Part shown: one piece after another, positions 112 to 43,219 of the stretch | Layout: each line of letters begins with the position of its first letter | Numbering within the stretch: the stretch's first letter is position 1 | Sequence record: PQ384582.1 | Strand: one strand, 5' to 3' | DNA length: 44,482 nt | DNA from: Escherichia phage EcoPhCCP1 | Program-made: the position numbers and the translations under genes | Notes under the pieces: model-generated | What the model was told of the DNA's origin: nothing | The model's input: the letters and a program-made list of their open reading frames with translations, nothing else | Databases searched by the model: none

Positions 112-265
112 CCTAACCCCAGCTTCGCGGCAGCAAACGTAGCAGAGATACCAGCAGCCCCTGTCTCGGTGAAATATGCCTCTTCCAGCCTAACCCCAGC
201 TTCGCGGCAGCAAACGTAGCAGAGATACCAGCAGCCCCTGTCTCGGTGAAATATGCCTCTTCCAG
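112..265. repeat. perfect 77-bp tandem direct repeat, two copies (112-188 and 189-265)
   Basis: Read directly: both copies are cctaaccccagcttcgcggcagcaaacgtagcagagataccagcagcccctgtctcggtgaaatatgcctcttccag; phase ambiguous by 1 nt. Confidence 0.95.
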
Positions 266-619
266 CGCCTGCGCCGTTTCCCAGGCTTCTGCAAATGCGG
301 GAATCTCGCGCAGCCACAGCTTAATAATCGGGATAGTGACGCCAATGTGTAAGGCGAAGCGGGCCAGTGATGGTGGTTTATCCTGAATCAGCGGGCGTTC
401 GTCACCCTTAGACGTGGGCACAAGCTCCCATGACGTGCGGTCGAAGAAACGAATCAATTCGTCGCAATAGTCCGGGTCCCACAACGCGGCGGAATTACGG
501 GATGATTGATAAAGGCTCTGTTTACCGCGCGGTCGTTTACGGCGACGGTTTGCGCTAACAGCTTCTTCATGTGCAGCTTGCACCACCTCTGGTGATGGCT
601 GCTTGAGTTTCAGCTTCAT
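113..619 (-). CDS. terS: terminase small subunit (C-terminus altered by the 77-bp duplication)
   Basis: Small-terminase-like motif pattern (PSLARFALHIGVT...W...AF); AAGGGGA SD 4 nt before ATG 617-619 (track ORF extends to 658); circularly adjacent to terL. Confidence 0.6.
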   Translation of the reverse strand: MKLKLKQPSPEVVQAAHEEAVSANRRRKRPRGKQSLYQSSRNSAALWDPDYCDELIRFFDRTSWELVPTSKGDERPLIQDKPPSLARFALHIGVTIPIIKLWLREIPAFAEAWETAQALEEAYFTETGAAGISATFAAAKLGLGWKRHISPRQGLLVSLLRLLPRSWG

Positions 620-636
620 AGAATCCCCTTGCGTAT

Positions 637-690
637 GCGTCTGACCATCAGAGCGCATCAGACGCGCCCTACGCGTCTAAATGGATTATA
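637..690 (-). promoter_or_regulatory. candidate promoter/leader upstream of terS: TATAAT (690-685) plus two overlapping, mutually exclusive dyads
   Basis: Dyads AGACGCG/CGCGTCT (660-666/672-678) and GCGTCTGA/TCAGACGC (637-644/658-665) share the CGCGTCT arm. Confidence 0.3.
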
Positions 691-2654: not shown

Positions 2655-2683
2655 AATATAATAGGGTCGATGGTAATAGTCAA
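2655..2683 (-). promoter_or_regulatory. sigma70-like promoter TTGACT-N17-TATATT (minus strand)
   Basis: -35 at 2683-2678 and -10 at 2660-2655 on the minus strand, immediately after terminator 2705-2737. Confidence 0.45.
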
Positions 2684-2704
2684 CTAGTCATTACAGAAAA
2701 TAGA

Positions 2705-5305: not shown

Positions 5306-5423
5306 ATTCTTCGCTCACCCCGTTATAGACGCCGTTGTAATCTCCGTCGCAGATGAACGGGTAGAGCATATCTTCGTACTCGTCCTGCAACTCGCCTAAA
5401 GTTACTTCGCTATAATCTTTCAT
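5295..5423 (-). CDS. hypothetical acidic protein (42 aa, below cutoff)
   Basis: Translated by hand: MKDYSEVTLGELQDEYEDMLYPFICDGDYNGVYNGVSEEYEY; AGAGGAGAG SD; first ORF after promoter 5454-5482. Confidence 0.4.
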   Translation of the reverse strand: MKDYSEVTLGELQDEYEDMLYPFICDGDYNGVYNGVSEEYEY

Positions 5424-5453
5424 CTCTGTCTCTCCTCTCGTTTGTGTAAATGA

Positions 5454-5482
5454 ATAGTAGCCTATTCTATCTTAGTGTGCAA
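5454..5482 (-). promoter_or_regulatory. phage promoter family member TTGCAC-N17-TACTAT (minus strand)
   Basis: Same architecture as 6830-6858, 29301-29329 and 39188-39216. Confidence 0.5.
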
Positions 5483-5489
5483 GTAAATT

Positions 5490-5660
5490 TTATTGGTGTT
5501 TTAAAGATAATCGTTCACTGCGAATCCAGTAGTACCTCGGGCGTCGTGCCCACTGACGCCATCGCATAACACGGTACTTGTTGCCGTCTGACGCAACAAT
5601 AAGCCCGAATCGCTTTTCTCCGTTTCTACCAGTCCAGGTTACGATGTCATTCAGTTTCAT
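5490..5660 (-). CDS. hypothetical basic protein (56 aa, below cutoff)
   Basis: Translated by hand: MKLNDIVTWTGRNGEKRFGLIVASDGNKYRVMRWRQW...; GGAG upstream. Confidence 0.3.
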   Translation of the reverse strand: MKLNDIVTWTGRNGEKRFGLIVASDGNKYRVMRWRQWARRPRYYWIRSERLSLKHQ

Positions 5661-6804: not shown

Positions 6805-6829
6805 TCCTCTGTCTCGTTTCGATAAGTGA

Positions 6830-6858
6830 ATAGTATCCTATTATGTTGGGGTGTGCAA
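6830..6858 (-). promoter_or_regulatory. phage promoter family member TTGCAC-N17-TACTAT (minus strand)
   Basis: Reverse complement of 6826-6858 matches the 32-bp promoter at 29301 and 39188 with 2 mismatches. Confidence 0.55.
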
Positions 6859-7010: not shown

Positions 7011-7156
7011 ACAATAGACTATGGCCCTTCCGAATGCGCCAGCGAGACTCACTCCACACGTCGAGACGTGCTCGTTTCGCCTGCCGCGCACCGCGGTCGC
7101 TTGTTCATACTTCACAAGCTCAGGTCGAGCTTAGCATATTTCTTAGTAAAAGTCAA
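7011..7156. repeat. non-coding repeat element, copy 1 (paralog of 38980-39121)
   Basis: Direct alignment: about 80% identity overall with a 45-bp near-identical core (CGCGGTCGCTTGTTCATACTTCACAAGCTCAGGT.GAGCTTAGCA). Confidence 0.85.
7128..7156 (-). promoter_or_regulatory. promoter-like module in repeat copy 1: TTGACT-N17(TGn)-TAAGCT (minus strand)
   Basis: -35 TTGACT (7156-7151), 17-nt spacer, extended -10 TGcTAAGCT (to 7128); conserved in copy 2. Confidence 0.4.
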
Positions 7157-7261: not shown

Positions 7262-7432
7262 ATGACTATCAATGAAGTAGCTGAACGTATTGGGGTGACG
7301 CGCCAGACAATTAATAACTGGATTAAGAGTGGAAAGTTTCCTGATTGCAGCGTTAAAGTAATGGGTCGCCGGATGCCGGGGACATTTGACCGTAATAAAG
7401 TTGAAGCGTGGATTAAGGAGAACGTGAAATGA
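7262..7432 (+). CDS. HTH DNA-binding protein (AlpA/Xis/MerR-like)
   Basis: Internal ATG 7262 with GGAG SD; MTINEVAERIGVTRQTINNWIKSGKFP is a typical HTH. Confidence 0.6.
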   Translation: MTINEVAERIGVTRQTINNWIKSGKFPDCSVKVMGRRMPGTFDRNKVEAWIKENVK

Positions 7433-10096: not shown

Positions 10097-10121
10097 GTAA
10101 AAAGAAAGGGGCGTTAAGCCC
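10097..10121 (-). terminator. rho-independent terminator (minus strand) at the end of the XRE gene
   Basis: GGGGC-GTTAA-GCCCC hairpin (10107-10121) followed on minus strand by TTTCTTTTTT. Confidence 0.5.
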
Positions 10122-10329
10122 CTTCACCGAACGCCAGCCACTTGGCGTCTACTTCCAGCACTTCTGCCAGTTTAAACAGCGTCGCCGGGCGGACATCCTG
10201 AGTTACACCGAGTGCCAGTTGGTTAATCGCGCCCTGGGAAACCCCAGCCAGAACAGCCAGACGGCGCTGGGAGATGCCGAGTTCTTTACGGCGTTGTTCT
10301 ACACGGATGCCTAGTTCAGATGGTTGCAT
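10114..10329 (-). CDS. XRE-family HTH transcriptional regulator (Cro/CI-like)
   Basis: LGISQRRLAVLAGVSQGAINQL is a classic XRE HTH; gene is antiparallel to the flanking replication genes. Confidence 0.75.
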   Translation of the reverse strand: MQPSELGIRVEQRRKELGISQRRLAVLAGVSQGAINQLALGVTQDVRPATLFKLAEVLEVDAKWLAFGEGA

Positions 10330-10393
10330 GTCAATTACTCCTTAGTCAGTTGATATGTGAATAGTACCATATTAATTATTTTAGGAAAGCCCA

Positions 10394-10423
10394 TTGACAT
10401 CATGAATAGTTAGCTATTATAGT
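10394..10423 (+). promoter_or_regulatory. sigma70-like promoter TTGACA-N18-TATAGT with AATAG-N4-CTATT dyad in the spacer
   Basis: Spacer TGAATAGTTAGCTATTATAGTT is identical to 13465-13486; back-to-back with the XRE promoter region. Confidence 0.55.
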
Positions 10424-10455
10424 TAGCACATACCAAACGAGAGGAGAGAAACAAA

Positions 10456-10632
10456 ATGGCTAAACGTAAAGATTATGATGCTAACTGGAAAGTGTGGTTT
10501 CCCAACGTCATCCTAGAAGGACGTGGGGATGTTGAAGGTATGATTACTCAGGCATTCCGTTTCTTACCCGAAAACATGCAGAAAGACATTCTTAAAGAAC
10601 TTAACAATATCGCCGAACAGGAGAACAAATAA
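10456..10632 (+). CDS. hypothetical protein (58 aa, below cutoff)
   Basis: Translated by hand: MAKRKDYDANWKVWFPNVILEGRGDVEGM...; GAGAGGAGAG SD; TAATG junction with next gene. Confidence 0.45.
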   Translation: MAKRKDYDANWKVWFPNVILEGRGDVEGMITQAFRFLPENMQKDILKELNNIAEQENK

Positions 10633-11159
10633 TGTTAGAGAAATTCTTAGTATTACTGGAACGTTTCGTAGTTGCGCATGAACTGATTGCTGCGAACAGT
10701 GTGAAACAACCGACTAATAAATCTGTAGGTGAATTGACCGTTGACGTCGCGGTAACGGGGGTAGAGACAGTTAAAAAAGAACTGGCTAAAGCACTTGAAG
10801 AAGTCGAGAAGGCGAAAGAAATCCCGGTTGAAGGTGAAGACGTCGTTGACACTAAACCGGCAGAAGATGAGAAGCCGAAACGCAAGCCTGGCAAATCAAA
10901 ACCAGCCCCTAAACCTGTAGAGGAACCAACACCGGAGCCGGAAGAAGAAGTCGATTACCAGTCTCTGCGTGACCAGATTCAGGCTATCGACGATGCGATT
11001 AACGAAGGTCCGAGCGATGCCGCGTGCGACGATTCCGATGAACTACTGGAAGAGTTCACCGGTAAGAAAATGAAGATTGCCGCGATTAAAGACGAAGACC
11101 TGGTTGAATATCTGGAACTCCTCACGGCAATCAAGAACAAGTATTTCGAAGAAGAATAA
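10632..11159 (+). CDS. acidic Pro/Glu/Lys-rich protein (hypothetical)
   Basis: ORF track; strongly acidic low-complexity central region (KPAPKPVEEPTPEPEEE). Confidence 0.5.
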   Translation: MLEKFLVLLERFVVAHELIAANSVKQPTNKSVGELTVDVAVTGVETVKKELAKALEEVEKAKEIPVEGEDVVDTKPAEDEKPKRKPGKSKPAPKPVEEPTPEPEEEVDYQSLRDQIQAIDDAINEGPSDAACDDSDELLEEFTGKKMKIAAIKDEDLVEYLELLTAIKNKYFEEE

Positions 11160-11172
11160 CTACTTAACTTAT

Positions 11173-11196
11173 GTTGCCCTCATACGTGAGGGCAAC
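11173..11196 (+). other. perfect 10-bp stem-loop GTTGCCCTCA-TACG-TGAGGGCAAC
   Basis: Read directly; no U-tract on either strand; lies just 5' of the SD (TGAGGGTCGG) of the next gene. Confidence 0.8.
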
Positions 11197-11214
11197 AAAC
11201 TGAGGGTCGGAATT

Positions 11215-11487
11215 ATGATTTACCAACTCTACCGAGCCGTAGACAGGCGGGATAGCACAGAGGCGTTATGGCTGTTGCGCGCGCCGTCCGGTGCGCACCA
11301 GATGGAAGAGATGGCGTACTTAGGCAAAGTACCACGGCCTAAAGATATAGGCCGTCACGTGTCGCAGATTAAGCGCACGACTTTCGCCAAGCCTGACTTT
11401 TATGTCTTCGAGTCGATGTATGGGTGGGCTATGCACTGCGAACATAAGACACGGCATTTAATTGACCAGTGGGAGAACAGGGTATGA
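11215..11487 (+). CDS. hypothetical protein
   Basis: Internal ATG 11215 with GAGGG SD, in frame with track ORF 11077..11487. Confidence 0.45.
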   Translation: MIYQLYRAVDRRDSTEALWLLRAPSGAHQMEEMAYLGKVPRPKDIGRHVSQIKRTTFAKPDFYVFESMYGWAMHCEHKTRHLIDQWENRV

Positions 11488-11981
11488 ATTGGCATGAAGT
11501 TTTTGACTACGACCCCGCTACAGGTAAATTATTTTGGAAAATAAGTCCGTCAAAATCTGTAAAAATAGGGCAAGAAGCTGGCAGTACGAGGGCGGACAAC
11601 GACGGGAGTGAATTTAAAATACTACGTTTTAACGGGACTACTAAACTTATCCACCACGTAGTTTGGGAGATGTTTAACGGGCCGATAGCGCCTGGGGAAG
11701 TAATTCGTCATAAAAATAAAGATAGAACTGATAACAGAATAGAAAATCTTATAAAAATGCGTCGGGGCAGTATCGCACACGGCACCAGCATACGGACGGA
11801 CAATACTTCAGGGGTTAAAGGTGTTGGGTTTCATAAACGCTATGGTAAGTGGGTCGCAAGAATTTATGTAGACGGCAGGCCGATTTATTTAGGGGCTTAC
11901 GATAAGTTAGAGAACGCGGCTAAGGCTCGCAGGCAAGCCGAGATTAAATACGGGTTTACAGTTAACGGAGCTGAGAAATGA
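11484..11981 (+). CDS. HNH homing endonuclease with AP2 DNA-binding domain
   Basis: HH...N...DNRIENL HNH core and AP2-like KGVGFHKRYGKWVARIYVDGRPIYLGAYDKLENAAKA. Confidence 0.75.
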   Translation: MNWHEVFDYDPATGKLFWKISPSKSVKIGQEAGSTRADNDGSEFKILRFNGTTKLIHHVVWEMFNGPIAPGEVIRHKNKDRTDNRIENLIKMRRGSIAHGTSIRTDNTSGVKGVGFHKRYGKWVARIYVDGRPIYLGAYDKLENAAKARRQAEIKYGFTVNGAEK

Positions 11982-13228
11982 TTCTAAAAGAACGCGGCGG
12001 CAATAATGACGTACACGCCTTACTGTCGCCGTCAGGTGCTAAAAAGTGGCTAAGCTGCGCCGCGTCACTGGCCTGTGAAAAAGATATTCCTAACACGTCA
12101 GGTAAAGCCGCGGTATTAGGCACAGCTATGCATACAATAGCCGAGGTCCATTTAAATCAGTACATCAAAGGCACTGCGCTGCCGTTAGAACGTGAAGTTG
12201 GCGCTTACGTGCTGGATGGGGGTAAAGGTCAGATTAAGGCGCTAATCAGCCCGATTAAAGGCGCGGTACTGATTACGGCGGATATGATTGAGCAGGTGCG
12301 TAAGTACACCGACTACTGCAAACCGATTATCGATGTAGCGACTTACGCCAAGCTCGAGATGCGCGTCAATCTTACTGAGGTATTGCATCCTGGCTACGAA
12401 GGTGTCGAGACGTTCGGAACTGCTGACCTTGTTGCCGTACAGGAACTGGCAAACACTGACGAGCACATGTTAATTATCGGCGACCTGAAAACTGGGCGGC
12501 ATCGTATCGAAGCGAAAGAAAACAAGCAGCTTATGCTCTATGCTCTCGGTGTTTATCGCCGACTCAAGAGACGTTATAACATCGCAGTTGTTCGTCTGGT
12601 CATCTTCCAGCCGTACGCTGGCGGGGCGTCGGAGTGGGACATCTCGGTTGAAGGTCTGGAACTGTTCGCTAAGTTCGCACAGAAACGTGCACTGTTGGCT
12701 CTTGATGCCTATTTCCGCGGTAAGAAGAACCTGAAAGCGTCGGACTTCAAGCCGTCTGTCGATGGTTGTCAGTGGTGCCGGTTCTCTGAACAGTGTGCTG
12801 CGCGTACAAAAACCGTTAACGCGGTACTGGCGGAAGAGCTGGAGGACGACTTTGCACTGGAACTGACGCCGGAGCAACTCGTAACTGAGTATGAGAAGCT
12901 GCCGTTGTTGCGCCAGCACATAGACAAGGTTGAGAAAGCGATGGCCGCCGCATTGCATTCAGGTAAGAAAGTGCCAGGGTACAAGCTGGTTGAAGGCCGT
13001 CCTGGTAATCGTGCGTGGAAAGACTCCGATGCGATTGAAGTGTCACACGGCGACATTCTCAAAAAAGAGGTATTGATGTCGCCCACGGAGGCAGCAAAAG
13101 TTCTTTCGGCGGACGAGATGGCAGCGCTTGAGCCGTTTATCACGCGTAAGCCGGGCGCACCATGTGTCGCATCGGCAGACGACAAGCGTCCTGAGTGGAA
13201 TCAGGTAACAGAGGAGGATTTAGAATGA
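11978..13228 (+). CDS. PD-(D/E)XK nuclease, Cas4/DUF2800-like
   Basis: N-terminal HALLSPSGAKKWLSCAAS, DLKTG motif and C-terminal Cys cluster (C.WCRF...C). Confidence 0.65.
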   Translation: MILKERGGNNDVHALLSPSGAKKWLSCAASLACEKDIPNTSGKAAVLGTAMHTIAEVHLNQYIKGTALPLEREVGAYVLDGGKGQIKALISPIKGAVLITADMIEQVRKYTDYCKPIIDVATYAKLEMRVNLTEVLHPGYEGVETFGTADLVAVQELANTDEHMLIIGDLKTGRHRIEAKENKQLMLYALGVYRRLKRRYNIAVVRLVIFQPYAGGASEWDISVEGLELFAKFAQKRALLALDAYFRGKKNLKASDFKPSVDGCQWCRFSEQCAARTKTVNAVLAEELEDDFALELTPEQLVTEYEKLPLLRQHIDKVEKAMAAALHSGKKVPGYKLVEGRPGNRAWKDSDAIEVSHGDILKKEVLMSPTEAAKVLSADEMAALEPFITRKPGAPCVASADDKRPEWNQVTEEDLE

Positions 13229-13461
13229 TTCGTAAAATGTTCAGAGTAATTGGCGGTTTTGTGGCGTTTTTAAGCTATCACTTTATGATGTTGCCGGTTT
13301 ATTCTTTGCTTTTTCCATTAATGGCTTATATTGCGGTTAAGTATAAAACTGTAGACCTGGAAGACTTAATGGAAGTTAATGAGATAAAGTTTGTTCAGAA
13401 TTTGGAGTGGCCTTTCGAATACGTACTGATAGTTGAGAAAATAACTGGCTGGAAGGGTTGA
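13225..13461 (+). CDS. small membrane protein
   Basis: Internal ATG 13225 with GGAGGA SD and ATGA overlap; two hydrophobic segments. Confidence 0.4.
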   Translation: MIRKMFRVIGGFVAFLSYHFMMLPVYSLLFPLMAYIAVKYKTVDLEDLMEVNEIKFVQNLEWPFEYVLIVEKITGWKG

Positions 13462-13486
13462 CACCTGAATAGTTAGCTATTATAGT
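13458..13486 (+). promoter_or_regulatory. sigma70-like promoter TTGACA-N17-TATAGT with AATAG-N4-CTATT dyad
   Basis: Consensus -35 at 13458-13463 and -10 at 13481-13486; spacer shared with the 10394 promoter. Confidence 0.6.
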
Positions 13487-13545
13487 TCTAATCACTGGCC
13501 GGGCAGCTTCCCGGAGTAAACGAAACTTAAAAGCGAGAAATCACG

Positions 13546-14175
13546 ATGGGCATTAAACTGAATCTGCGTAAAGTAAACACTGCTTGGGTTAATGTATTCG
13601 AACGTGCTGCCGACTCTGAGGACAAGAAAACCGGTAAACTGATTAAGGGTAAATATCAGGTTACTGTTCTTATGCAGCCCGACCACCCTCAAATCGACGC
13701 GCTTTACGACACAGCGCTAGAAGTTGTAACAGAGGCAATCGGGACCGCCGCCGCTGAAAAATGGATGAAGGCCAACTACGGCGAAGACCACCATGCAGAT
13801 AAATGCTGCGTCCGTGACCTGGCAATGCGCGACAACCCGATTGAGGATTTTGAAGAAGGTCTGTATTTCCGCGCTACTAACAACCGCCAACCGGTAATTA
13901 TGACCTCGGCTAAAGGCGAAAAACAAACCGAGCCTGATTTCAACATCGACGGGCAGGAAGTAGAAGGCGAGCAGGTATATAGCGGGTGCGTAGCAAACGT
14001 ATCTGTAGAGTTATGGTGGCACAAAGAATGGAAAAACCTGTGCGCCACCATCCTCGGCATCAAGTATGCTGGTGAAGGTAAACGCTTCGGCGGCTCCAGT
14101 GTAGTAGCGAGCACCGACGACCTGGAAGACGACGAAGAAGATGGAGCACCGCGCCGTGAACGCCGCCGTCGCTAA
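13546..14175 (+). CDS. ssDNA-binding protein (DUF2815-like)
   Basis: Sits between the DUF2800-like nuclease and the DNA polymerase; acidic C-terminal tail DDLEDDEEDG. Confidence 0.55.
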   Translation: MGIKLNLRKVNTAWVNVFERAADSEDKKTGKLIKGKYQVTVLMQPDHPQIDALYDTALEVVTEAIGTAAAEKWMKANYGEDHHADKCCVRDLAMRDNPIEDFEEGLYFRATNNRQPVIMTSAKGEKQTEPDFNIDGQEVEGEQVYSGCVANVSVELWWHKEWKNLCATILGIKYAGEGKRFGGSSVVASTDDLEDDEEDGAPRRERRRR

Positions 14176-16831: not shown

Positions 16832-16980
16832 CAATGTTTGTATTTTGGACGATAGTAACCATGCTCGCACTGTTACTCGGCGCTGGAATAGCTGCGATGT
16901 TCTGTTATGGCCTGTTCTTTAAGTTTTTCGGTGTTGCCGTTCTCGGTGGAGCTTTCCTTACTTGGATTCTGCGGTCGTGA
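16828..16980 (+). CDS. small membrane protein
   Basis: ATG 16828 (MTMFVFWTIVTMLALLLGAGIAAMF...), two hydrophobic segments. Confidence 0.4.
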   Translation: MTMFVFWTIVTMLALLLGAGIAAMFCYGLFFKFFGVAVLGGAFLTWILRS

Positions 16981-17261
16981 CTAAAGAGGGCCGCGTACAG
17001 AAATACGCAAAAGAGCGATTCGAGGCCATTGGCGGCCTCGTTCGTAAACTGTCTTATGAGGGGCGTTCCGGCGCCCCTGACCTGCTGGTAATTCTCCCCG
17101 GGGGCATCGTCTGGTTCGTCGAGGTGAAGAAAGACGAAAACACGAAGCCAGACCCGCACCAGTTACGGGAACACGGGCGGATGCGTAAACGCGGTGCAAA
17201 TGTTTTTGTCGTTGGTTCGTTTAAACAGGTTGACGACCTAATAGCGAACTATTATAGTTAA
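16962..17261 (+). CDS. VRR-NUC domain nuclease
   Basis: PDLLVILPGG...VWFVEVKK matches the VRR-NUC (PD-(D/E)XK) pattern; non-ATG start (TTG 16962 or GTG 16977). Confidence 0.6.
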   Translation: MDSAVVTKEGRVQKYAKERFEAIGGLVRKLSYEGRSGAPDLLVILPGGIVWFVEVKKDENTKPDPHQLREHGRMRKRGANVFVVGSFKQVDDLIANYYS

Positions 17262-20136: not shown

Positions 20137-20140
20137 AGAA

Positions 20141-20167
20141 AAGGCCCCAAACGGGGCCTTAGTTTTA
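20141..20167. terminator. bidirectional rho-independent terminator between the replication and tail operons
   Basis: AAAAGGCCCC-AAAC-GGGGCCTT with T-runs on both strands. Confidence 0.75.
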
Positions 20168-29300: not shown

Positions 29301-29329
29301 TTGCACACCCCAATATAATAGGGTACTAT
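29301..29329 (+). promoter_or_regulatory. phage promoter family member TTGCAC-N17-TACTAT (plus strand) driving the moron island
   Basis: 32 bp (29301-29332) identical to 39188-39219. Confidence 0.6.
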
Positions 29330-29360
29330 TCACTTACACCAACAATGGAGGGGTTTTAAG

Positions 29361-29552
29361 ATGTCCAGTTTACCAATTTCCTTAATTCTGTTCGCACTGC
29401 TTGCTTATTTCGCACCTTTCCTGGTTGCGTACTTCCGTAATCATAAAGCGAAGTTAGCGATATTCATGGCTAACTTATTTCTTGGGTGGGTTCTGTTGCC
29501 GTGGGTATTCATTTTAATCTGGGCTTGTAACTCGAACGTGAAAGAGAAGTGA
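29361..29552 (+). CDS. small two-TM membrane protein, superinfection-immunity-like
   Basis: YFAPFLVAYFRNH...NLFLGWVLLPWVFILIWA resembles the Imm_superinfect pattern; GGAGGGG SD. Confidence 0.5.
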   Translation: MSSLPISLILFALLAYFAPFLVAYFRNHKAKLAIFMANLFLGWVLLPWVFILIWACNSNVKEK

Positions 29553-29590
29553 GCTACTATAGGACAAATCCTAAACACGAGGAAGTAAGC

Positions 29591-30721
29591 ATGGCCCGGA
29601 AGAAAATAACCGACGAACAGTTACAGGAAGAATTGAACGCCGGGGTTAAAACTATCGATATAGCCCGTAAATATGGCATCTCAGACCGCGTTATTCGTAT
29701 CCGTAAAGCGAAGCTGGCGAAGAAAGGCGTGGGTCATGGGCGTGACGTTAGCCACCTTGTGCCGGACGGCTACAAGATTAAAGGAACATCGTCACTTGTG
29801 GACGAGTTCGGCAACACTAAGTTGCAATGGGTTAAGACCGATACCGATGCCGAACGTCAGGTCGAATTGATGAAAGCCGTAATCGAGGGCATGAAGTCAG
29901 AGATTACTCCAGTTGCGCCTGTTAAAGCCGCCCGCACCAAACGCGACGACAAGCTGCTCAATCTTTACACGGTATCTGATTTCCATCTCGGTATGCTGGC
30001 CTGGGCTGACGAGAGCGGCGACGACTGGGATATGAAGATTGCGGAAGACCTGTTTTCTCGCTGGTTCGATGCGGCGTTTCAGAAAGCACCAGATGCGGGA
30101 ACCGGGGTTATTAACCTGCTGGGTGACTTTGCTCACTTCGATAGCCTGGACGCCGTTACACCTGAGTCGCGCCATGTGTTGGACGCCGATACTCGCTATC
30201 AGAAACTGGTTCGCTACATGATTCGTATGGTGCGCCGTGTTGTTGATATGGCGCTTGTTAAACATAAAACCGTTCGCTTGCTTATCGTGCAAGGGAACCA
30301 CGACGAAAGCGGAATGATTTGGTTGGCTGAGATGTTCAGTACGCTGTACGACAACGAGCCGCGTGTGTTCGTCGATACGTCGCCGGATGTGTACAAGATG
30401 GTGCGACACGGCAAAACGACGCTGTTCTTCACACATGGTCATAAATGCCGGTTTGAGGTGGTCGAACCAATTATGATATCTAAGTTCAGAAAAGCATTCG
30501 GGGAAAGCGAGTACAGCTACGCTCACGTAGGCCACCTGCATCACCAGAAAATTGTAGAAAGCCGTAACATGATTGTTGAGCAACACCGCACCTTAGCGGC
30601 TAAAGATGCCTACGCCTCTCGTGGCGGATGGATGTCAGGACGCAGTGCAAATGTAATTACTTATAGCGCCGAATACGGCGAGGTCGCACGTTTAACTATT
30701 TCACCGGAGATGCTGGGATGA
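29591..30721 (+). CDS. calcineurin-like metallophosphoesterase with N-terminal HTH
   Basis: Motifs SDFHLG, LLGDFAHFD, VQGNHDE, THGH, VGHLHH; ATG 29591 with GGAAG SD (track ORF starts at GTG 29549). Confidence 0.6.
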   Translation: MARKKITDEQLQEELNAGVKTIDIARKYGISDRVIRIRKAKLAKKGVGHGRDVSHLVPDGYKIKGTSSLVDEFGNTKLQWVKTDTDAERQVELMKAVIEGMKSEITPVAPVKAARTKRDDKLLNLYTVSDFHLGMLAWADESGDDWDMKIAEDLFSRWFDAAFQKAPDAGTGVINLLGDFAHFDSLDAVTPESRHVLDADTRYQKLVRYMIRMVRRVVDMALVKHKTVRLLIVQGNHDESGMIWLAEMFSTLYDNEPRVFVDTSPDVYKMVRHGKTTLFFTHGHKCRFEVVEPIMISKFRKAFGESEYSYAHVGHLHHQKIVESRNMIVEQHRTLAAKDAYASRGGWMSGRSANVITYSAEYGEVARLTISPEMLG

Positions 30722-31203
30722 AAGATATTGTAATTTTCGATTTAGATGGAACATTGGCAGATGGTATGCATCGTTTACACCTGCTGCCGAAAGATAACTA
30801 CAACGAAACATGGGCGTGGAAACCCTTTAACATGGCGTGCAAAGATGATGAACCAATTAGAGATAACATCGAACTGTGTAACGCCCTTAATCGTCGCTAC
30901 GCCGTTATTATTTTAACTGGTCGCAGTGATGATGCAGAAAAAGAAACCAGAATGTGGTTGCAGCGCCACCGCGTCGAATTTTATCAGTTAATCATGCGCA
31001 GCAAACACGACAACAGAAAAGACATCGTAATTAAAGAAGAGGTGTTACGCGCTATCGGGCTGGAAAGAATATTGTGCGCATTCGACGACTCTCCGGCGGT
31101 AATAAAGCATTTCCGCGGACTCGGTATAACCACTCACGCGGTTACTGAATACGACTGTAACGGGAATTCTACACACTTAAAATCACACGGGAGCGATAAA
31201 TAA
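30718..31203 (+). CDS. HAD-superfamily phosphatase / 5'-nucleotidase-like
   Basis: HAD motif I FDLDGTLAD at the N-terminus. Confidence 0.6.
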   Translation: MKDIVIFDLDGTLADGMHRLHLLPKDNYNETWAWKPFNMACKDDEPIRDNIELCNALNRRYAVIILTGRSDDAEKETRMWLQRHRVEFYQLIMRSKHDNRKDIVIKEEVLRAIGLERILCAFDDSPAVIKHFRGLGITTHAVTEYDCNGNSTHLKSHGSDK

Positions 31204-31772
31204 TGGCTAAGGTAATTATTCTTAATGGCCCGGCGGGTTGTGGGAAAGACACACTTGCTATGGTGCTGGTAGAAATGGGCTTTGCGAAGGGTGCTACCAG
31301 TTTCAAAAATCCAATGTTCAATATTGCTCTGGCAGCGTTAGGTCCGGATGCGTACCACGAGTTTCTCGACGGCTACGACGACCGGGCGCGGAAAGAAAAG
31401 CCAGAGGGTTTCCTTAATGGTTTGTCTCGTCGTCAGTTCATGATTGCCATTTCTGAGCAATTCATTAAACCGGTTCTCGGCGGCGATTATTTCGGTAAGT
31501 ATCTTGCTGAAAACTTGCCCGACGGCGATGACGTTTTTGTAGTGTCAGACGGTGGATTCGCCAGTGAAGTGTCCCCTATCGTCGCCGCAGGGCATGACGT
31601 AAAAATCGTTCGCTTGCGCAGAGACGGCTATACGTTTGACGGGGATAGTCGTGGTTACCTGTACGGTATTGATGGTGCGGTATGTCATGACGTTGTGGCC
31701 ATCCCAGGCGAGATTACATTAACAGCAGCTGCGATTGCTAATAGAATCCTGGGGATTTATCCAAATGCGTGA
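31203..31772 (+). CDS. P-loop kinase, dNMP-kinase-like
   Basis: Walker A NGPAGCGKDT (GKDT variant as in T4 gp1-type dNMP kinases). Confidence 0.55.
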   Translation: MAKVIILNGPAGCGKDTLAMVLVEMGFAKGATSFKNPMFNIALAALGPDAYHEFLDGYDDRARKEKPEGFLNGLSRRQFMIAISEQFIKPVLGGDYFGKYLAENLPDGDDVFVVSDGGFASEVSPIVAAGHDVKIVRLRRDGYTFDGDSRGYLYGIDGAVCHDVVAIPGEITLTAAAIANRILGIYPNA

Positions 31773-31946: not shown

Positions 31947-31976
31947 AAAAAGGCCCCGAAAGGGGCCTTAGTTTTA
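31947..31976. terminator. bidirectional rho-independent terminator
   Basis: AAAAAGGCCCC-GAAA-GGGGCCTT flanked by A-run and T-run. Confidence 0.75.
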
Positions 31977-38979: not shown

Positions 38980-39121
38980 CAATAGAGTATGGCCCTTCCG
39001 AACGCGTCAGCGTAACTACACTCGGGACTTACGTCCGGCTCCGTTACCTGCCGCGCCGCGGTCGCTTGTTCATACTTCACAAGCTCAGGTGGAGCTTAGC
39101 ACATTTTCAGTGAAAAGTCAA
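38980..39121. repeat. non-coding repeat element, copy 2 (paralog of 7011-7156)
   Basis: Direct alignment with copy 1; conserved ends and core, variable middle with a 2-nt indel. Confidence 0.85.
39093..39121 (-). promoter_or_regulatory. promoter-like module in repeat copy 2: TTGACT-N17(TGn)-TAAGCT (minus strand)
   Basis: -35 TTGACT (39121-39116), 17-nt spacer, TGcTAAGCT; same architecture as 7128-7156. Confidence 0.4.
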
Positions 39122-39134
39122 CTATTCGAATAGT
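39121..39134. promoter_or_regulatory. perfect 14-bp palindrome ACTATTCGAATAGT abutting the -35 of the repeat-copy-2 promoter
   Basis: Read directly; half-sites related to the AATAG/CTATT dyad found in other promoters. Confidence 0.6.
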
Positions 39135-39187
39135 TTATTCCAACATTTACAATTCGGCGGAATACCTGGAATAGGTAAATAAATTGT

Positions 39188-39265: not shown

Positions 39266-39391
39266 ATGAACTACGCACCTCTTAAAAATAAATGTCGAGC
39301 TGCGGTTATCCGTAAAGCGTGGAGAGACGCTCCTGACTCACGTATTAAAAAGGTGATGCTTGAGTGGGCCGAAAGACTCAGCTTAACATAA
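39266..39391 (+). CDS. small basic protein (41 aa, below cutoff), moron
   Basis: Translated by hand: MNYAPLKNKCRAAVIRKAWRDAPDSRIKKVMLEWAERLSLT; GGGAG SD; own promoter and terminator. Confidence 0.4.
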   Translation: MNYAPLKNKCRAAVIRKAWRDAPDSRIKKVMLEWAERLSLT

Positions 39392-39395
39392 AACT

Positions 39396-39420
39396 AAGGC
39401 CCCGTTACGGGGCCTTTTAT
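39396..39420. terminator. bidirectional rho-independent terminator
   Basis: AGGCCCC-GTTAC-GGGGCCT followed by TTTT. Confidence 0.7.
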
Positions 39421-41720: not shown

Positions 41721-41724
41721 AGCT

Positions 41725-41750
41725 AAGGCCCCTAGCGGGGCCTTTCTATT
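41725..41750. terminator. rho-independent terminator after the KilA-N gene
   Basis: AGGCCCC-TAGC-GGGGCCT followed by TTCTATTT. Confidence 0.65.
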
Positions 41751-43219
41751 TACTCCTGTTGTTGCGCCGACTGCGGAATATCCCCCGCTACCTGAGTATT
41801 TACACCCAACGGCAGCGGTGCGTCCTCAATAGCGTTCTGAATGTCCTCATCGGTCCAGTCGGTTACGCCAGCCTTACGCAGAGCGGCGTAGTAAGCAGTA
41901 GCTGGTAACAAGCCAGCGTTAATATCCGCCATCCACTGAGAACGGTCCTGAGCTGTCATCGGTTGCAGGAAGAACTCCATATTCAGCTTGAACTCAATCT
42001 CTGTGCCTTCACGCAGCCCTAGCATCGCAGCCACCCAGCGCAATGCATCGGTGTACGCCATGCTTACGTTACGTGCGATTGTCGCCATAACAGACGTATC
42101 CGCTCCGCGTTGCAGGCGGGCCGATTCCGCGGTGATTTGCTGCGTCGGGGTGATAAGCTGCGCCCCAATCTGGATGGCCTGATTCTCTTTATCGAGCATG
42201 TTCTGTTTGGCAAGGTTGTTCTCCCCAGCCTGGACCAGAAACGCATTGCCGCCGTAACCGATGTTATGGCCCGAACGCGACCCCATGCGCACGCCGTGTG
42301 GGTTAGCCTCTTTCCACTGTTCCATGCTCATGTTCTCGCCGGGGGCGATAAACAGCGTGGGCTGGCCTACAACGAAGCTCGACTCCTCATTGTCCGCGCT
42401 GTTACGGAAATGCCCGATATTGAGCTCAGCCAACGGCAGCAAAGGGGCATCGTCGATGGTCGCATCGTTGTTGCTCGCCCCGATGAACGTGAACGGGATT
42501 TTACCGCGCAACTGTTCGCCGAGTTCCGGGTATATTTCGATTACTTCATCCTGTTCGCCACCTTCGGCATCGAAGCGATAAATGCGCTGGCGATAACGAC
42601 CGTCAATCAGGTCAAGGACACGGTATTGCTCACCAAACTTGGTTTCGAACTCTGCGCCAGGTTCCGAGTATTCCCATACTTCGCGCAGCACGACCATTGT
42701 CACACGGTTAACCGAACCGATGCGGGTCAGTCGCCAGTTGATAATGTTCTCCGCGGTGTAGAATGCGATGACTGGGTTTAACAACCCCGCGTTCTGTTCT
42801 GCCGCTGTTGCCGCGGCTGTCTCCGGGGCGTCCACCAGCAACCCGCCACGGCCTACCGAGTCAATCTCCATCAAAGTGTCCTGCGCGTGCTGCCACAGCC
42901 CGACACCGGAGCCATCCGCATTGCGTAACAGGTACTCCATTTCAGGCGGGATAATCTGCTCTGGGTCTTTGCGCATCACCGACCCCACCATCCCGGCCAG
43001 GGTACGTTTAGTGAAGTTGTAGCAAATAGCGCCGTTCTCGTATTCTTCCTGACGCTGGGCTGCGTAGACCGGGTCAGGTTCGTTCTTACCGACGTTGCGA
43101 AGATAGCGGATAAGGTCGCCCTCCAGCGCGTGGCGTACCTTCTGCCATTTATCGAAGTGATGCAGCCATTCCCGGTGTTTTGTCTTAACACCCTGATTCT
43201 GACCGTTCATAGTTAGCAT
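41750..43219 (-). CDS. portal protein
   Basis: 489-aa ORF immediately downstream of terL; no motif recognised. Confidence 0.65.
   Translation of the reverse strand: MLTMNGQNQGVKTKHREWLHHFDKWQKVRHALEGDLIRYLRNVGKNEPDPVYAAQRQEEYENGAICYNFTKRTLAGMVGSVMRKDPEQIIPPEMEYLLRNADGSGVGLWQHAQDTLMEIDSVGRGGLLVDAPETAAATAAEQNAGLLNPVIAFYTAENIINWRLTRIGSVNRVTMVVLREVWEYSEPGAEFETKFGEQYRVLDLIDGRYRQRIYRFDAEGGEQDEVIEIYPELGEQLRGKIPFTFIGASNNDATIDDAPLLPLAELNIGHFRNSADNEESSFVVGQPTLFIAPGENMSMEQWKEANPHGVRMGSRSGHNIGYGGNAFLVQAGENNLAKQNMLDKENQAIQIGAQLITPTQQITAESARLQRGADTSVMATIARNVSMAYTDALRWVAAMLGLREGTEIEFKLNMEFFLQPMTAQDRSQWMADINAGLLPATAYYAALRKAGVTDWTDEDIQNAIEDAPLPLGVNTQVAGDIPQSAQQQE

Follow-up and report, generated by a model that had tools for sequence, protein, structure and literature searches.

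A 14-bp dyad shared by the predicted promoters of a Kagunavirus genome as a candidate operator for a Cro-like protein

The dyad and the promoters that carry it

Positions 13458-13486 of the window, the whole 44,482-bp stretch of DNA that was analysed, hold a sigma-70-type promoter that is predicted to drive the genes for the SSB-like DUF2815 protein (13546..14175) and for DNA polymerase. The window is a complete Kagunavirus (Guernseyvirinae) genome. Kagunaviruses are virulent siphoviruses of E. coli and their kin are the Salmonella Jerseyviruses. A search with the replication region matched 450 phage records, with the Kagunaviruses RP180 and the fFiEco, fTaEco and fKuEco phages at the top (85-91% identity), and gene order is that of the annotated RP180 and Jersey genomes. 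No integrase, CI repressor or RNA polymerase is listed in the annotation of RP180 or of Jersey. Additionally, primase-helicase, DNA polymerase, tail, tape-measure, portal and terminase genes account for the large ORFs of the window, and none of its ORFs is left over to encode an RNA polymerase. We found no description in the literature of the transcriptional programme of Kagunaviruses or Jerseyviruses; the single RNA-seq study that was found, on the Kagunavirus K1B4, gives coarse temporal classes only and reports four early genes, one of which has an HTH domain.

A promoter scan of the window returned TTGACA-18-TATAGT (10394-10423) and TTGACA-17-TATAGT (13458-13486), each matching 11/12 positions, as the two best promoters in the first 20 kb, and the second of these coincides exactly with the span under study. 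A preliminary description of this DNA had pointed to an identical 22-bp spacer just downstream of a consensus TTGACA at both promoters. The hexamers do lie at 10394-10399 and 13458-13463, and the 22-mer TGAATAGTTAGCTATTATAGTT does occur exactly twice, although its correct coordinates (10403-10424 and 13466-13487) are one base higher than those first given. None of 100 shuffled sequences contained a match to the 22-mer with 3 mismatches allowed. However, when 19 relatives in which both promoters fit the pattern were compared, only two had identical 22-mers at both promoters. The rest differ in the N4 centre, the commonest pair being TTCG versus TTAG, and these four central bases are the only positions of the 22-mer that are free once the dyad halves and the -10 are set aside. 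Thus, the 22-bp identity, taken at first as the signal, carries none and is incidental; the signal is the dyad and not the whole spacer.

The dyad itself, AATAG-N4-CTATT, is present in seven exact copies, at 5453, 6829, 10405, 13468, 17240, 29317 and 39204, against 0.03 expected from the mean of shuffled sequences (shuffle maximum 2), and a gap of 4 is the sole enriched 5-Nx-5 dyad geometry in the genome. Judged by these sequence statistics, the dyad is a real and strongly non-random regulatory element. The features concerned, which include a third TTGACR-type promoter (at 17240) and two one-mismatch dyads (10360-10373 and 2675-2688) that the preliminary description had overlooked, are as follows.

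P13468: 13458..13486, plus strand; promoter with -35 TTGACA at 13458-13463, dyad AATAGTTAGCTATT at 13468-13481 and -10 TATAGT at 13481-13486
P10405: 10394..10423, plus strand; promoter with -35 TTGACA at 10394-10399, dyad AATAGTTAGCTATT at 10405-10418 and -10 TATAGT at 10418-10423
P17240: 17230..17258, plus strand; promoter with -35 TTGACG, dyad AATAGCGAACTATT at 17240-17253 and -10 TATAGT
P29317: 29301..29330, plus strand; promoter with TTGCAC at 29301-29306, dyad AATAGGGTACTATT at 29317-29330 and -10 TACTAT at 29324-29329, inside the dyad
P39204: 39188..39217, plus strand; promoter with 32 bp identical to P29317
P5453: 5453..5482, minus strand; promoter with TTGCAC at 5482..5477, N10, AATAGGCTACTATT at 5466..5453 and -10 TACTAT at 5459..5454
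P6829: 6829..6858, minus strand; promoter with TTGCAC at 6858..6853, N10 and AATAGGATACTATT at 6842..6829
XRE-promoter near-dyad: 10360..10373, minus strand; AATATGGTACTATT, one mismatch, over the -10 (TACTAT) of the promoter that serves the XRE gene itself
Late-promoter near-dyad: 2675..2688, minus strand; ACTAGTTGACTATT, one mismatch, overlapping the -35 TTGACT
XRE/Cro-like gene: 10114..10329, minus strand; 71 aa, HTH_3 domain, best solved relative phage 434 Cro

All seven exact sites and the two near-sites overlap sigma-70-type hexamers at the correct spacing, these promoters being predicted and not mapped. P13468 is kept in 33 distinct relatives. P10405 is divergent from the XRE gene and is predicted to drive 10456..13461, with AATAG retained in the spacer of its orthologues in other lineages, while P17240 overlaps the 3' end of the upstream ORF 16962..17261 and has a dyad centre that varies in relatives. 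P29317 (repeat family D10) would drive a plus-strand island at 29361..31772, and P39204 a 41-aa ORF (39266..39391) that ends at a bidirectional terminator. On the minus strand, P5453 is predicted to serve the leftward genes from about 5423 and P6829 the leftward small genes from about 6795. The earlier statement that the dyad overlaps the -10 of four TTGCAC-type promoters holds: in P29317 and P39204 (plus strand) and in P5453 and P6829 (minus strand), TTGCAC and N10 are followed by AATAGGnTACTATT, with the -10 TACTAT lying within the dyad and overlapped by its right half-site in each case. Of the two near-sites, that at 10360-10373 is invariant in 36 distinct relatives, the equivalent Jersey site being weaker, and is a putative XRE autoregulatory site. 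The other belongs to a late/lysis-side promoter, TTGACT-17-TATATT (2683..2655), and its Jersey orthologue is AATAGTTGACTAGT.

Most dyad promoters share a leader of about CAyTTACACnAAACGAGAGGAG, which fixes their direction and makes them one promoter-leader cassette family. Consequently, the identical spacers cannot be said to stand in otherwise unrelated contexts, as had been proposed, since all belong to a single family of paralogous cassettes. The promoter-leader cassette of P5453 is conserved between the loci L002-L038 and window positions 5400-5500, although Kagunaviruses differ in the sequence on its upstream side and in the first gene after it, so that these cassettes sit at mosaic junctions. 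P13468, P17240, P5453 and P6829 lie inside co-directional gene arrays, and P10405, P29317 and P39204 lie in divergent intergenic regions.

Several further features were observed beside these promoters and elsewhere in the genome. Just upstream of P39204, positions 39120-39135 form a perfect 16-bp palindrome, AACTATTCGAATAGTT, with its half-sites everted (CTATT-CG-AATAG), which overlaps a one-mismatch dyad at 39113-39126. Bidirectional terminator hairpins of the form AAGGCCCC-N4-GGGGCCTT occur at strand switches (20139-20167, 31948-31976, 39392-39419 and 41721-41751), and this hairpin family is the top repeat in the Cornellviruses St162 and VSiP. The leader of the DUF2815 gene (13494-13520, ACTGGCCGGGCAGCTTCCCGGAGTAAAC), with a small CCGGG/CCCGG hairpin, is nearly unchanged in Jersey, St162, VSiP and the loci L107 and L108, the upstream promoters differing among phages that keep it, and may be a translational operator of the SSB-like protein; the leader hairpin 3' of P13468 is thermodynamically unremarkable (z = 0.43). 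When the DUF2815 gene (13546..14175) was compared with the loci L063-L102, most Kagunavirus contigs were only about 65% identical and a few 97% identical, two allele classes that point to exchange of the allele within an otherwise similar replication module. A homing-endonuclease gene with HNH_3 and AP2 domains (11469..11981) is inserted in the replication operon; the genes of RP180 at this position (ORF40/ORF39) are different and shorter, and no HNH gene is annotated there. Finally, a tandem duplication of 77 nt without mismatches (111-187 = 188-264) is located at positions 111-264, where the minus-strand terminase small-subunit ORF 113..658 has its 3' end. Its length is not a multiple of three, and it may be either an artefact of assembly or of a terminal-repeat join, or a real frameshifting duplication.

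Conservation and placement of the dyad

Each promoter was aligned to its counterparts in 28-36 distinct Kagunavirus sequences. On average, the fraction of non-consensus bases per column is 0.006 in the left half-site, 0.092 in the centre and 0.003 in the right half-site, so that the centre is ~15-30 times more variable than the half-sites among these Kagunavirus relatives. The stretch between the -35 and the dyad is likewise variable. Thus, the left half-site matches the -35 and -10 in conservation, whereas the four central bases drift freely, and since RNA polymerase reads no bases in the spacer, the invariance of the left half calls for another reader. The right half-site always coincides with a -10-like sequence, and part of its conservation is therefore owed to RNA polymerase.

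The position of the dyad within the promoter is not fixed. It spans about -25 to -12 in the TTGACA-type promoters, about -19 to -6 in the TTGCAC-type promoters and about -22 to -9 at one promoter of Jersey, and at the late promoter it overlaps the -35. The 5-4-5 geometry nevertheless stays constant while the dyad moves 3-6 bp relative to the -10 and -35 between promoter classes. Such flexible placement is tolerated by a steric repressor but not by an activator, whose action is phase-dependent. In addition, the TTGACA-type promoters match the consensus at 10-11/12 positions and so need no activator. Activation from the spacer of the MerR type was considered and rejected as the spacers are 17-18 bp and not 19-20 bp. 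Taken at the level of sequence, the shared dyad looks like an operator and not like promoter spacer filler. The operator proposed in the preliminary description accordingly finds partial support in a left half-site that is conserved within the spacer, a centre that drifts and a dyad that shifts relative to the -10.

Candidate readers of the dyad

The candidate that we rank first is the XRE protein. It matches Pfam HTH_3 with E = 2.3e-12, and its best match in the PDB is 434 Cro (E = 5.4e-7, residues 6-68 against 4-64), both proteins being 71 aa long. Its distant homologues in the phage collection are true lambdoid Cro proteins encoded between cI and cII. For example, the XRE protein of the window shares about 40% identity with the Cro proteins of Klebsiella phage RothC and Enterobacter phage CobraSix, and the cI-cro intergenic regions of these phages contain 14-bp dyads (ACAA-N6-TTGT in RothC, ACAG-N6-CTGT in CobraSix). 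A CI-like XRE relative on the uncultivated contig L058 is similarly adjacent to ACAAC-N4-GTTGT, which is present twice. Since these relatives adjoin 14-bp dyads, the dyad of the window has the geometry used by the 434 Cro-like family. The recognition helix begins with an invariant Gln, and every one of these operators has A as its outermost base. Moreover, the XRE gene is located in a divergent promoter pair that has one perfect dyad and one near-dyad 45 bp apart. We infer that a protein binds the dyad, that this protein is a dimer of XRE (10114..10329) and that the effect is repression of most of the sigma-70-type promoters, a reading to which we give a probability of roughly 0.5.

Comparison with the 434 Cro/CI system (OR1-OR3 and OL1-OL3, 14-bp ACAA-N6-TTGT) reveals both likenesses and differences. 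As in 434, the window encodes a 71-aa HTH_3 homologue, its gene lying at a pair of divergent promoters that each have a site, the dyad is 14 bp long with 4-5 conserved outer bp, a free centre and an outermost A, and the sites overlap core promoter elements. On these grounds the dyad and XRE may work like the 434 Cro/operator pair. Unlike in 434, the half-site is AATAG and not ACAAG, helix residue 29 is Gly or Ser and not Gln, and the predicted operators are single sites over at least eight promoters of a 44-kb virulent genome that has no lysogeny module. A CI partner and tandem (in 434, triple) operators were looked for and are absent. The window is thus not a member of the 434-type immunity switch, and the lack of both, which is unlike either 434 or lambda, counts against XRE, as does the distance of 45 bp between the two sites at the XRE locus. 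RothC and CobraSix differ in the same direction, as these are temperate phages with a CI-Cro-CII layout whose operators are clustered at one locus and have the half-sites ACAA and ACAG.

A comparison of recognition helices with operators across genera gives an ambiguous picture, parts of which speak against XRE. As a point in favour, the dyad is a top repeat in Jerseyviruses as well, with 4 exact copies in the Jersey genome and 37 in 12 Jersey-like loci. Kagunaviruses and Jerseyviruses therefore share AATAG-N4-CTATT, yet helix 3 of their XRE proteins (52% identical overall) reads SQGAINQ in the former and SQSLITH in the latter, with 4/7 recognition-helix positions differing. Conversely, the Cornellviruses St162 and VSiP have an XRE protein with a Jersey-like helix (TQSAISH) but 0 exact dyads and no strongly repeated promoter motif. 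A de novo repeat search of the Cornellviruses returned terminator hairpins and, in St162, one weak TATTA-N6-TAATA cluster, with no alternative regulon motif, and the dyad is absent from several other lineages that have a syntenic XRE gene. A word-seeded protein search that started from XRE had no discriminating power, as it retrieved close Kagunavirus relatives alone and the helix is identical in each of them. As a separate observation, two Cornellvirus loci (L041 9728-9745 and L042 34426-34443) have an 18-bp near-palindrome, TACACTATTAGTAGAGTA, in the promoter spacer of the XRE gene itself, which may be a lineage-specific operator.

The second protein considered is encoded by the first gene of the rightward operon.

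HTH_17 (excisionase-like) gene: 7262..7432, plus strand; 56 aa

Two copies of HTH_17 bound head to head could read the dyad as an operator and either repress or remodel the promoters that carry it. The protein is 77% identical between the window and Jersey, with its HTH nearly unchanged, and it is found in 442 phage records, all of which are Kagunavirus-like or Jerseyvirus-like, while it is absent from St162 and VSiP, which themselves have no dyad. This phyletic profile initially favoured HTH_17, but it rests on essentially one evolutionary contrast and is weakened by more distant relatives. We gathered 15 such loci (L103-L117) through the DUF2815 gene. An XRE orthologue of 37-49% identity is present in 13/15, and three of these orthologues are 97-99% identical to the Cornellvirus form; in the loci that reach far enough, the gene is located about 3 kb upstream of DUF2815. 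L116 and L117, which gave no XRE match, are short and stop too near DUF2815 to include the XRE position. HTH_17 was detected in 0/15 of these loci by tblastn or by profile HMM within the stretches examined. One of them, L108, is Cornellvirus-related, has XRE and has no detectable HTH_17 in the 20.5 kb examined, but contains five AATAG-N4-[CG]TATT sites in promoter spacers against 0.06 expected. Its XRE-divergent promoter reads TTGCTA-ttcac-AATAGCTGAGTATT-ATAGTT, and L107 and L114 have the same arrangement at this promoter. L107 has two dyad-like promoter sites and likewise no HTH_17 in the stretch examined. The right half in L107, L108 and L114 is mostly GTATT, with a symmetry of 4/5 that could partly reflect constraints on the -10. 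Within the stretches examined, L107 and L108 thus indicate that the element occurs alongside XRE in the absence of HTH_17.

Other properties of HTH_17 point the same way. Proteins of the excisionase family typically bind direct repeats as monomers or filaments and not 14-bp inverted repeats, and the only, faint, solved relative of HTH_17 is the mycobacteriophage excisionase 4j2n (E = 0.17). Phage K1ind2 has a 62%-identical HTH_17 variant with a changed recognition helix (SPMTLNRW), yet its dyads are unchanged. The promoter region of the HTH_17 gene itself (7111-7140) lacks the AATAG dyad, an absence that we place on the side of HTH_17. We therefore rank HTH_17 second, as an unlikely reader, with the absence of any dedicated binder (considered below) no better placed and unknown factors making up the remainder. 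That the reader is either HTH_17 or an unrecognised phage or host factor, and not the Cro-like protein, seems unlikely. Among host transcription-factor sites, those of ArgR and SlyA and the marbox are not known to fit across all of the copies.

A second promoter type was observed near the HTH_17 gene. A repeat of about 145 nt (7012-7156 and 38980-39121, 87% identity) contains a promoter-like TTCACA-18-CATATT that lacks the AATAG dyad and has in its spacer an inverted repeat of its own, AAGCTC-N5-GAGCTT. One copy precedes the HTH_17 gene and the other is located about 80 bp upstream of P39204. This promoter type may be immediate-early.

It is also conceivable, but doubtful, that the dyad has no dedicated binder and is a by-product of the extended -10 region (CTATTAT or TACTATT) of paralogous cassettes, with the upstream mirror image being due either to common descent or to a second -10 that faces the other way, like that of symmetric bidirectional promoters. 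The right half does always overlap a -10-like hexamer, and the promoters clearly form families with a shared leader. The arm ATAATAG holds a perfect TATAAT, on the bottom strand in the TTGACA-type and on the top strand in the TTGCAC-type promoters, and an opposite-strand promoter would be useful at P10405, P29317 and P39204, given their divergent intergenic regions. However, such an opposite-strand -10 has no usable -35, and the co-directional arrays around P13468, P17240, P5453 and P6829 need no opposite promoter. Ancestry alone would not keep the left half as constant as the -35 and -10 when the spacer beside it and the centre drift, nor does this explanation sit well with a 5-4-5 geometry that is retained as the dyad moves by 3-6 bp between promoter classes.

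The motif has been published previously as a predicted phage promoter consensus. In the Kagunavirus fBC-Eco01, PHIRE identified seven sites with the consensus tgAATAGTa-ccTATTat-T, which were assigned to a phage RNA polymerase (PMC9825357), and seven PHIRE sites were also reported in the paper on the Kagunavirus Golestan. The motif is the same and the seven sites per genome match the seven of the window, but in these papers the dyad symmetry, the sigma-70 hexamers and a link to a repressor go unmentioned. More broadly, in the literature that we searched, the dyad is nowhere described as an operator or linked to the Cro-like gene. A phage RNA polymerase promoter is highly improbable given that sigma-70-type hexamers are present with correct spacing at every site, that the RP180 and Jersey annotations lack an RNA polymerase gene and that no ORF of the window is unaccounted for. 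The same low probability applies to a loading site for a Q- or AlpA-type antiterminator. The AlpA binding element does lie between the -35 and the -10 (PMC9371919), and one database record names HTH_17 a "pyocin activator protein", but Q and AlpA elements are asymmetric and are not 14-bp dyads. Contact residues of AlpA extend to position 142, and its N-terminal ring is inserted into the RNA exit channel (PMC9371919). Loading of this type was rejected for HTH_17, which at only 56 aa is an HTH alone and has no ring-forming segment.

Predicted regulation by the XRE protein and its meaning

If XRE is the reader, the dyad would be a repressor operator present in seven perfect and two to three weaker copies across the core of at least eight host-type promoters. 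An XRE dimer would place one HTH on each half-site and leave the four central bases uncontacted, and since the dyad covers the spacer and the -10 (at one promoter, the -35), its occupancy would block host RNA polymerase. XRE would be made from its own weak promoter soon after infection. As it accumulates, the perfect dyads would be filled, namely those of the leftward early promoters P6829 and P5453, those of the replication promoters P10405, P13468 and P17240 and those of P29317 and P39204, which would serve two small rightward islands inside the late region. Early and middle transcription would in this way be turned down as XRE builds up. The imperfect sites, at XRE's own -10 and at the -35 of the late-side promoter, would be the last to be filled, with the imperfect copy on the XRE -10 giving a weaker and later autorepression. 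We infer this order of events and the sign of regulation from sequence features.

Should the reader instead not be XRE, it would be a new type of minimal global regulator acting on nearly all Kagunavirus and Jerseyvirus promoters by way of a site within the promoter core, with the universally conserved XRE having a local role only. With XRE as the reader, the dyad would be an ordinary kind of regulatory site that is used unusually widely, and classical Cro/operator logic would operate outside of a lysogeny switch, which is no conceptual surprise. If true, the published assignment of the motif to a phage RNA polymerase would be corrected, and a defined, portable promoter/operator pair would be available to engineers of therapeutic phages; Kagunaviruses and Jerseyviruses are among the phages most often isolated for therapy and biocontrol of E. 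coli K1 and Salmonella. Moreover, one Cro-like protein and a 14-bp site would account for the shut-down of early and middle promoters in a virulent phage whose transcription relies throughout on the host RNA polymerase.
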